This document shows, one piece after another, positions 2,993 through 18,715 of a stretch of DNA of 20,000 nt. Each line of letters starts with the position of its first letter. Position 1 is the stretch's first letter. Source of the stretch: Cystobasidiomycetes sp. EMM_F5 (lineage: Eukaryota); assembly GCA_051047955.1 (NCBI GenBank), contig JBPGPT010000055.1, positions 51,267 through 71,266 on the forward strand. Reading direction: 5' to 3'. Made by a program: the position numbers and the translations under genes. The notes under the pieces were generated by a model, which was given only the letters and a program-made list of their open reading frames with translations, had not been told where the DNA came from and made no database searches.

Positions 2993-3830
2993 ATGTCGGC
3001 AGCACCAGTGACCGCACACGCGGAACAGACCGAGAAGGCGTACTTGAAACAGCCAATCTTTCAAAACACGAAAATCTCTGGAAAGGCAAAGTCATCGACC
3101 AAGCTCAAGAGGTGGACTCGCGAGGTCGGACTGGGCTTCAAGACCCCGTCAGAGGCAATCAACGGAACCTACATCGATAAGAAGTGCCCCTTCACCGGCA
3201 ATGTCAGCATTCGCGGCCGTATCCTTACCGGCGTAGTCGTAAAGACCAAGATGACACGAACAATCATCATCCGAAGAGATTAGTTAGTCGTGCTGCCTGA
3301 AAGACATGCGGTACACCAGAGATTTTTGGACACTAATGGCATGCCTGCTCGCACGCGCCAGCCGCCTATGCCGTACGCACTTGCATTGCAACGGAAAGCG
3401 AATGCAATTGGAGCAAACAGCGGCGTGCCATAGAGAGCCAAGATTACAACGTGGACCGCTGCACTCAATGCACATACTGACGTGATGCTATGTCTTCCCA
3501 GCTTGCACTACATTCCCAAATACAACCGTTACGAAAAGCGACACAAGAATGTTGCGGCGCACTGCTCGCCAGCGTTCCGTGTAGAGGAGGGTGATATTGT
3601 TACCGTTGGTCAATGTCGGCCATTGACAAAGGTCGGTCAGCTCGTCGCTGGTTTGGTCGTCCGATTATGCTGAGATGCATCCTTGATTGCAGACTGTCCG
3701 CTTCAACGTTTTGAGAGTGCAAAAGGGCAAGCAGTCTGGGTCGAAGCAATTGTGCGCATTGGCATTTGCCCCTCTCTATACCACCAAGCTGAACTAATGT
3801 CCCGTTCCCTCTTACAGCGTCAAGTTCTAA
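2993..3830 (+). CDS. RPS11: 40S ribosomal protein S11 (uS17)
   Basis: Exons 2993-3282, 3502-3631, 3693-3751, 3818-3830. Protein contains [34 protein letters not shown]...[20 protein letters not shown]...[17 protein letters not shown]...KQF|VKF*. Confidence 0.98.
3283..3501 (+). other. Long, self-complementary first intron of RPS11 (candidate structured RNA element)
   Basis: 219 nt, against about 50-75 nt for the other introns in the window. Nested complementary segments: 3308-3316/3451-3459, 3321-3329/3438-3445, 3336-3345/3422-3431, 3346-3350/3411-3415, 3381-3387/3401-3407. Confidence 0.6.
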
Positions 3831-4124
3831 GTCGTTCAGGAACGGATTGATGATTTGGCTGTCGTTGCATCACCGTGATTGCTCAGCGGTGTTTACGTTG
3901 TTTGGCGGTAGATCCGGGTCACCCCAGGCAATGCAAGCATACTAAAGAGCCGTTGCCGTGATATCAAGTGCCACGGATCTTCTCCAGCGTGCTCCAAACC
4001 CTGCCGCCCACCTCCTTTCAGACATTTTCTGACAACATCTAGCCACTGATTACTTCCCTGCTCCGTCATTCTGGTCAGATAACATAAGGTCGCGCAATGT
4101 TCTGAACACCAGACTGGCTACATT

Positions 4125-17151: not shown

Positions 17152-17634
17152 TCAAGCTGCTTTTGCGTATTTGTTGGCCGAGCGGACTCCAAACCCAGCC
17201 AGGAAAGCGATACGCAGAGGCAGGGCGACGAGCAGCATACCGACGTTGGAGTAGTCGAGCGGTCGCCAGTGGTGGGGTTGGAGTAATTGCAGGCCCATAA
17301 CCTCGACCATGCCGAAGAGGTGAAACGCGTCTCCAAACAGCATCAACGCAATGACCATTTTACAGATATCGAGCTGCCTGGCTGCCAGCGCCTGCCGCAT
17401 GACGAGCGCTTGGACGCCGGCCATGAAGAGTTCCAGAGCTCCGAGCTGGTACATGACTGGCTTGAAGGCGAAGGGAATGGCCGGGACGCGCAAAGGCGTG
17501 AAGACGTTGAGATGCTCGATGGGTTGAAATATCGCTTGGAGGCCGCCGAGAAGAATGGCAATTGGCTCGAGCCACAGGAAATAGAATCGATACGGCATTG
17601 CCATATGGACTTCTCCGCTGGCGGGCATGGTCAT
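17152..17634 (-). CDS. Small intronless multi-pass membrane protein of an uncharacterised fungal family (DUF7704-like), paralog A
   Basis: 160-aa ORF with about 4 hydrophobic segments and motifs YRFYFLWLEP, FGDAFH, W...D..NV...LRIAFLAGFG. Colinear with the 18042-18530 ORF. Confidence 0.8.
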   Translation of the reverse strand: MTMPASGEVHMAMPYRFYFLWLEPIAILLGGLQAIFQPIEHLNVFTPLRVPAIPFAFKPVMYQLGALELFMAGVQALVMRQALAARQLDICKMVIALMLFGDAFHLFGMVEVMGLQLLQPHHWRPLDYSNVGMLLVALPLRIAFLAGFGVRSANKYAKAA

Positions 17635-18041
17635 TGTGGTATATGTCTACGAAAGGCTCTGCGTTAGCTGTGAGTAGCTGGAAACCAATGAACTTGGACT
17701 CACAGCTTGGCACGGCTTTCACTCCGTACGGTGGACGATGGACGACTACAGACTGCATGACCGACTGGCTCACGCTCGTTTCGTATCGTGCGCTATGGGC
17801 CAGCCCCGCAGGAAGGTCCCGCACGTGATCCGAGTCCTTCTTTCCGTCTGAAAACCCTCCGGCGGTCGTAAATACGATATACAATCACAAAATACAAGTA
17901 GACACCGTCCCGCTTATCCTATCAATCATCTCAGCAGCTAACGAGGCCTTGCCGCCCAGAAGAGCCATCTCGCTAATCACCCGTTTGTCCGGCTGCACAA
18001 GCCAATTTAGACTGACGGTCCCCTTTGTTGCCTTCTACTCC

Positions 18042-18530
18042 TCAAGCTGCCTTCTCTTGCCTGCTCTGAAAATGGACTCCCACACCAAACAAGAAAGCGG
18101 CTCGCAGCGGCAAGGCTATCAAGAGTCCGCCAACATTCGGCCATTCTACCGCGCGCCATAGCCATGGCTGGAAGAATTGGCGTCCCATAGTAGCGACCAT
18201 GCTGTAGCAGTGAATCATATCACCAAACATCATGAATGCCAGATTCGCATTGAATATATCGAGTTGACCGCTAGCGAACGCCTGGCGCAGTATGACAGCC
18301 TGGAATCCTGCCATGCAGATCTCGACTGATCCCAACTCATACATGAGTGGCTTGAAGGCAGTAGGAATGTCCAGAATCCTTGGAACAGTAAAGACGAAGA
18401 CGTGTTCAATTGGTTTGAAGATGACCTGGAGTCCCGAGAGCAGCAAGAGAAAGGGTTCGAGCCACAAGAAGTAAAAAGTGTACGGCCAAGCAATCCTGGA
18501 TCTTGATCTGACTATCGTCGCAGCTGCCAT
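18042..18530 (-). CDS. Small intronless multi-pass membrane protein (DUF7704-like), paralog B
   Basis: 162-aa ORF with motifs YTFYFLWLEP, FGDMIH, NVG.LL.ALPLR.AFL.G.GV. Aligns without gaps to paralog A over its core; both end in KAA*. Confidence 0.8.
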   Translation of the reverse strand: MAAATIVRSRSRIAWPYTFYFLWLEPFLLLLSGLQVIFKPIEHVFVFTVPRILDIPTAFKPLMYELGSVEICMAGFQAVILRQAFASGQLDIFNANLAFMMFGDMIHCYSMVATMGRQFFQPWLWRAVEWPNVGGLLIALPLRAAFLFGVGVHFQSRQEKAA

Positions 18531-18715
18531 TGTAAAAGCTTGGCAGTGCGTTTCCTATGAATACTTTCGAATTTCAGCGGAGACTCGACAATTCGCCAAT
18601 TCGATAACCTACGAAGCGAGGCTGAGGCACAAGACGCTATGGGAAGCTACGGAGTGTCTTGTCGAGTCTTGGGACTTGTCGAGTCGGGGAAGTGGGTAAA
18701 TGCTGTAGAACCAAG

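Follow-up and report, generated by a model that had tools for sequence, protein, structure and literature searches.

Most of what is known about ribosomal proteins that feed back on splicing comes from budding yeast and animals. Among the closest described systems is RPL30 of Saccharomyces cerevisiae, in which an RNA structure lies over the 5′ splice site, the encoded protein (L30e) binds it, and splicing is inhibited there (PMC13232506); this element is a kink-turn (L30e-mRNA; PMC5061560, PMC4316175). Zipper stems, defined in introns of S. cerevisiae such as those of RPS17B, RPS11A, and RPL7A, link the stretch that follows the donor to the one that precedes the branch site, and their structure is kept while their sequence is not (PMC12350175). 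Intron 1 of RPL7B, also a ribosomal-protein gene of S. cerevisiae, holds both a zipper and a conserved structure to which protein binds (PMC12311795).

We analyzed RPS11, the gene of ribosomal protein uS17, in a 20,000-nucleotide stretch of DNA from Cystobasidiomycetes sp. EMM_F5 (the window). As in RPL30, a structure is predicted over the 5′ splice site, where the encoded protein may bind and inhibit splicing. Unlike RPL30, the protein is uS17 and not a member of the L7Ae family, and the turn would be of the complex Kt-11 type, built from coding sequence deep in the open reading frame. The long intron that follows carries a predicted rod resembling the yeast zippers. A zipper and a conserved, putatively protein-binding structure would thus stand together as in RPL7B, with two differences: the RPL7B structures exclude each other, whereas those predicted here are adjacent and compatible, and the weak signal in RPL7B is the branch point, whereas the unusual signal here is the donor (PMC12311795).

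RPS11 was present in one copy in the 18.3-Mb source genome, and its best-scoring named homolog was P0001 (80% over exon 1), from a Cystobasidiomycetes yeast. On the plus strand, the gene consists of coding exon 1 (2993..3282), which matches PF16205 and ends in the TA of a Tyr codon, exon 2 (3502..3631), which matches PF00366, exon 3 (3693..3751), and exon 4 (3818..3832), which holds the coding end and the stop, the spliced translation ending in VKF. Intron 1 (3283..3501; 219 nt, GT-AG) separates the first two exons, followed by intron 2 (3632..3692; 61 nt) and intron 3 (3752..3817; 66 nt). Exons 1 and 2 were further supported by spliced contigs, and exon 3 and introns 2 and 3 by spliced contigs and by comparison with an orthologous locus, L009. 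The splicing evidence came from assembled contigs of 4 of 24 sequencing runs. Contigs of three of these four runs (X1, X2, and X4) joined 3282 exactly to 3502, which bears out the preliminary description of an intron with a GTTAGT donor, an ACTGAC branch (3476-3481), and a CAG acceptor; none of the contigs covers 3308-3477, and they are hence uninformative on retention. Two of the three joint-bearing contigs had 128 letters on their short side, with 1-3 differing letters per exon. The branch site ATACTGAC (3474..3481, plus strand; branch A at 3480) was placed from the consensus, and all 8 of its letters are the same in L009.

Intron 1 had been described as 3-4 times longer than every other intron in the window, which holds for the two other RPS11 introns (length ratio 3.3-3.6), to which our comparison was limited. 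Across 220 kb (the window and 200 kb from a single contig, with control introns picked by motif), the excess of donor motifs before branch and acceptor motifs peaked at intron lengths of 50-69 nt. Other ribosomal-protein genes, from two families, showed no gap longer than about 60 nt inside their matched parts, at coarse coordinates. Retention of intron 1 would, as previously noted, bring a TAG into frame at the junction, a stop at codon 97. Since TA followed by any GT donor spells TAG, the same would result from any intron that splits a Tyr codon behind its TA, and the stop is no independent sign of design. UPF1 is encoded in the source genome; in Cryptococcus, intron retention is reported to be mostly NMD-independent (PMC5006051). 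Separately, the database protein P0044 is identical to window exon 1 as far as IDK and picks up again in exon 2, with 33 residues missing; in place of the GTTAGT donor, its model used a GT farther upstream, at 3184 (window 3184-3282), and it reads into intron 3. A joint of this type from 3184 was absent among the run contigs, and the P0044 gene model is probably an annotation error.

L009 is a metagenome contig found with a pattern for the exon-1/donor junction, which retrieved one locus from metagenome contigs and none from viral or prokaryotic contigs. Its RPS11 has an intron of 366 nt (777-1142) at the same position as intron 1, besides introns of 59, 74, and 71 nt. The 59-nt intron (L009:464-522), after the fourth codon, is absent from the window gene, and the other three positions are common to both. 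The long intron and a predicted rod both recurred in L009. The intron bodies could not be aligned (best local match 8 nt, p = 0.86), and the exon/donor hairpin pairs described below showed no two-sided change.

The conserved part, which the preliminary description had missed, comprises the end of exon 1 and the first 7 intron bases (3242..3289, plus strand), identical to L009 at 47 of 48 positions and predicted to fold over the donor. Among codons eligible for synonymous change, 11 of 12 were identical within this block, compared with 51 of 94 elsewhere (Fisher p = 0.011). Permutation of codons within amino acids gave p = 0.046 for the block window and p = 0.44 for any window, and the codon conservation, taken alone, appears modest. 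The donor GTTAGTC is identical in both genes, whose two other shared introns have donors that differ; GTTAGT is rare in the genome (2 seen versus 1.6 expected from background, among about 184 excess donors). The sole difference in the block, A or G at 3262, coincides with an rRNA position that is likewise either A or G.

A consensus hairpin of 13 pairs over the donor was predicted in both species. Between these two sequences, its differences were two one-sided changes, both of which keep the pair, and none of the 13 pairs changed on both sides. The hairpin energy was -3.6 kcal/mol in the window and -3.3 kcal/mol in L009 (p = 0.22 and 0.58; 1000 shuffles). Burial of the donor was unremarkable, as 63-133 of 144 motif-picked control donors were equally closed. 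In a nascent-like context (60 nt of exon and 40 nt of intron), the predicted probability of the hairpin was 0.65-0.9 in the window and 0.24-0.8 in L009; with the full intron and both flanks it was 0.16-0.39.

We presumed helix 11 of small-subunit rRNA, whose numbering we take to be 240-286, to be the counterpart of this hairpin, and then tested the match. The part of kink-turn Kt-11 that S17 binds is its C helix (PMC3884654); this turn is of the complex kind, with two bases, the 3n pyrimidine among them, separating 1n from 2n (PMC5061560, PMC4316175). The helix-11 sequences were drawn from Rfam consensus lines, the organism's own 18S rRNA, and 80 usable prokaryotic loci (79 among the 80 listed of 117 found, plus L032), of which 78 were parsed and 2 dropped. 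When the 18S piece was searched against plasmids and E. coli, no usable 16S was obtained. The plasmid search returned NZ_CP050525.1, an entry of 1,764 bp filed as a bacterial plasmid; over the query it shares 87.7% identity with eukaryotic 18S rRNA, and it is likely a contaminant contig.

The two strands of helix 11 were matched in circularly permuted order. Judged against the 78 prokaryotic helices and the own 18S, 3252..3265 (plus strand) would be equivalent to the 3′ strand, the bulged Kt-11 strand, fitting it with one extra base, a loop at 3258-3261, and the variable purine at 3262. The equivalent of the 5′ strand would be 3278..3290 (plus strand), which holds the 5′ splice site (3283-3289) and is identical at 11 of 13 positions to several bacterial strands. 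We infer the assignment of Kt-11 positions to window bases as follows: G3278 would pair with C3265, with A3279 opposite A3263, U3281 opposite U3264, and A3282 opposite purine 3262; in the C helix, G3283 would pair with C3257, U3284 with A3256, U3285 with C3255, U3288 with A3254, C3289 with G3253, and G3290 with U3252, leaving A3286 and G3287 bulged. The position matching U3281/U3264 is UU or CC in all 78 prokaryotic rRNAs. Because this register pairs 3283-3289 in the C helix, the 5′ splice site would be one strand of that helix.

The match was scored with a descriptor of 15 features and a profile of the 78 helices, both designed after the site had been seen. The descriptor gave 15 for the own 18S and for 77 of 78 prokaryotic helices, and 14 for both the window and L009. 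Scores of at least 14 occurred at 14 of 437,228 positions, the site included; 142 control donors scored 12 or less, and the other five RPS11 introns scored 7-9. By the profile, the site ranked in the top 7 of 437,354 positions and came first among those whose donor-equivalent place is GT; a single position of the 437,354 exceeded the L009 score. In both the window and L009, the junction was the best position of the RPS11 gene.

Individual Kt-11 features agreed in part. The arrangement of 1n and 2n is present (A3279, U3280, U3281, and A3282, with U3264 as the 3b match), as is the 2b adenine (A3263). The 1b base is G in L009 and A in the window; A occurs there in 1 of 78 prokaryotes and as 'a' in the eukaryotic Rfam consensus. 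Of the canonical helix of three pairs, bulge, and further pairs, 5 of 6 pairs can form, and the third is U.C instead of U.G. The loop has four nucleotides (3258-3261) instead of three, and strict membership of the Kt-11 class fails on this loop length; without the extra loop base, the profile score fell from 14.0 to 4.2 in the window and from 19.2 to 4.8 in L009. The mimic further departs from rRNA Kt-11 in its reversed strand order and its short C helix without an apical stem-loop. It lacks the G of the U-G pair that is invariant in the prokaryotic helices (78 of 78), and two further pairs invariant among these 78 are altered. Its 2-nt bulge resembles bacterial and archaeal helices, unlike the 4 nt of the own 18S. 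The Kt-11 register was predicted to be unfavorable without protein (+2.8 and +2.1 kcal/mol; nearest-neighbor estimate with Watson-Crick pairs only). We also considered whether the RNA forced the Thr of K-M-T-R-T in the protein; this was rejected, as only 66 of the 113 homologs that could be parsed have Thr at this place (7 of the 120 listed could not be parsed).

Within the intron, all eight stems listed in the preliminary description lie where it had placed them, and the inner rod (3308..3459, plus strand; starting at intron base +26 and ending 21 nt short of the branch A) persisted in 4 of 4 sequence contexts, with most pairs of the three lower stems at probabilities of 0.83-1.0. With the splice signals held open, the nesting depth of the rod was 52 pairs in the window, compared with 29 in shuffles (p = 0.007; 300 shuffles), and 73 pairs in L009, compared with 46 (p = 0.02; 150 shuffles), giving a combined p of 0.0013; the folding energies gave p = 0.09 and 0.053, respectively. 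A zipper stem is defined by at least 6 bp, a distance of 10 nt or more to the donor, one of 20 nt or more to the branch, and a linker of 42-85 nt (PMC12350175). Stems of this geometry were found in the window (9 bp, linker 77; p = 0.19 versus shuffles) and in L009 (19 bp, linker 55; p = 0.007 versus shuffles), and a stem of at least 6 bp with this geometry also occurred in 36% (window) and 22% (L009) of shuffles. Unusual folding stability of the whole intron was not observed: the minimum free energy of -68.4 (z = -0.86) was equaled by 39 of 200 shuffles, and a second set of 500 shuffles gave p = 0.16. Trimming to the donor-branch segment gave z = -2.2 and p = 0.02, with a cut picked post hoc. 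The rod is thus real in outline and appears kept in shape but not in sequence, and the structure first described as a switch is best read as a zipper that would shorten a long intron.

From the intron and its splicing, the conservation, the sequence match, and the predicted folds, we infer kink-turn formation, Rps11 binding, and a splicing response. In the proposed mechanism, the rod would bring donor and branch to roughly the normal spacing of 50-69 nt and, by analogy with yeast zipper stems, allow an intron of 219-366 nt to be spliced as long as the uS17 site is free. The final 31 nt of exon 1, together with the opening 8 nt of the intron, would form a marginally stable hairpin able to adopt the permuted Kt-11 shape, in which the helix gripped by uS17 has the 5′ splice site as one of its strands. 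Rps11 in excess of the pre-rRNA supply would bind this site on its own nascent transcript and stabilize the Kt-11 form, and the bound protein would stall spliceosome assembly at U1 binding or a later step. The unspliced RNA, with its early stop, would then be lost by nuclear decay or NMD. We consider RPL30-type autoregulation of this kind, through a Kt-11 mimic together with a zipper rod, to be evenly poised between right and wrong. The preliminary description had proposed a uS17-responsive splicing element in intron 1. Its broad idea gains support because the conserved exon-1/donor element resembles the uS17 site in rRNA, whereas the structure predicted here differs from the one it drew and lies mostly outside the intron; the proposal is in this sense partly supported.

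The alternative that survives best, although we judge it unlikely, is that intron 1 is an ordinary long intron with a zipper rod only, whose likeness to helix 11 is an accident of the T-R-T-I and D-Y codons and the donor consensus, the block being kept by protein constraint, codon bias, and splice signals. To weigh this explanation, we combined exon and donor sequences from different sources. When synonymous codons were drawn at random and combined with control donors, 3% of 4000 trials reached the window score of 14.0 and 0.2-0.6% reached the L009 score. With the real exon and control donors, 33 of 150 combinations did as well as the window (the set included this donor itself), and the median profile score was 8.5 for the window and 13.7 for L009. 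These trials indicate that the codons supply most of the match, and that the improbable part is a long intron beginning exactly there. The accident is also consistent with another stretch of RPS11 that is identical at 33 of 35 positions between the two species, with the frequency at which permutation produces a window of 11 in 12 identical codons somewhere in the gene, and with the ordinary hairpin energy. Zipper stems are frequent in long yeast introns, that of RPS11A included, and poorly conserved in sequence (PMC12350175), and yeast RPS11 appears to be without feedback: RPS11A and RPS11B were not repressed in an S. cerevisiae overexpression screen, with log10 differences of -0.13 and -0.09, respectively, compared with 0.75 for RPL22B (PMC7732827), in a different intron from that of RPS11 here. 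However, an ordinary intron leaves unexplained why the sole long intron starts exactly at the gene's best helix-11-like position in both species, why both share the rare donor GTTAGTC, and why the intron has stayed long.

Far less probable is a regulatory exon/donor hairpin that is read by an L7Ae-family binder or another ribosomal protein, or that slows splicing in its Watson-Crick register. In both species, this register has the lowest predicted energy (-4.5 in the window and -4.9 in L009), the genome holds five L7Ae-family matches, and the faces of k-turns differ in the proteins they bind (PMC3884654). Nevertheless, the sequence agrees with the pattern of the complex Kt-11, to which the very protein encoded here is cognate, and lacks a standard tandem G.A/A.G core.

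Slightly less probable again is the switch of the preliminary description, in which donor-branch pairing closes the rod and an internal helix competes with it. The donor:branch helix is part of the minimum-energy fold of the bare intron (probability about 0.9), the donor and branch hexamers are identical in L009, and the exon hairpin of the window falls to a probability of 0.01-0.03 when the fold takes in just the complete intron and 60 nt of exon 1. With exon flanks of 30, 60, and 100 nt on both sides, however, the donor:branch helix dropped to 0.0, 0.1, and 0.23, respectively, and in L009 it stood at 0.01-0.06; complementarity between such signals is generic. The competing helix (3290-3296 with 3308-3314) had a probability of 0.0 in 4 of 4 contexts and is not conserved.

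It is very improbable that the intron owes its length to a hosted small RNA (an H/ACA or C/D snoRNA) or to a poison micro-exon (3362-3372): the window does contain ANANNA at 3313 and an ACA 14 nt below an internal loop, as well as a cryptic branch at 3332, an acceptor at 3359-3361, and a donor at 3373, but the Rfam search, which the preliminary description had called for, returned nothing for the window (E ≤ 1) or for L009 (E ≤ 5), no convincing target was found in 18S, 5.8S, parts of 25S, U2, and the U6 region, the best pocket (8.5 pairs) and the best antisense stretch (12 nt with one G-U) were at chance level, and the unalignable L009 intron has no internal branch or donor motif. A snoRNA host, judged by boxes in place, a target among the RNAs covered, and a conserved guide, was rejected, and so were the frameshifting 11-nt micro-exon and a cryptic 79-nt intron (window 3332-3378), both absent from L009. 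An introner-like element was rejected as well, since the only match to the intron in the source genome is itself and its position is shared with L009.

The snRNA genes covered by these target searches had features of their own. In the U6 gene (L008; G000:C221:637132-637185, minus strand, and downstream), the Rfam match is confined to model positions 1-50; there the gene is broken by an apparent GT-AG intron with a branch site, beyond which lie 8 nt of U6 and another GT donor. Spliceosomal introns occur in the U6 genes of some yeasts. The U2 snRNA (L007:1501-1742; G000:C68:218639-218880) measures 242 nt against a model of 192 positions, with about 50 extra bases.

A search of the openly licensed literature turned up neither RPS11/uS17 autoregulation nor a Kt-11 mimic; subscription papers and supplements may hold such a motif. 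RPS11 is absent from the main text, as far as available, of PMC8216456 (Ascomycota only), PMC5640933, PMC8047918, and PMC13232506, and a bacterial review names uS17 once in its available text, as a primary binder (PMC10931766). The fungal structure screens examined cover Ascomycota only or, in the text accessible to us, never mention basidiomycetes. Among the reports found, this would be the first uS17 autoregulatory RNA in any organism, a permuted Kt-11 made from the gene's own codons and 5′ splice site through which Rps11 would block splicing of its own pre-mRNA, with the intron fixed there as the codons already spelled most of the site; we place this claim a little short of even. If it is true, uS17 joins the self-regulating proteins, a second kind of kink-turn switch exists at a splice site, rRNA mimicry can be built from coding sequence, and a natural RNA of 39 nt becomes available for testing what uS17 needs for binding. 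It also suggests a search rule, in which the donors of long ribosomal-protein introns are scanned for permuted copies of the protein's rRNA site.

Elsewhere in the window, two neighboring open reading frames on the minus strand (17152-17646 and 18042-18554) encode visibly similar small hydrophobic proteins and are likely a tandem duplication.
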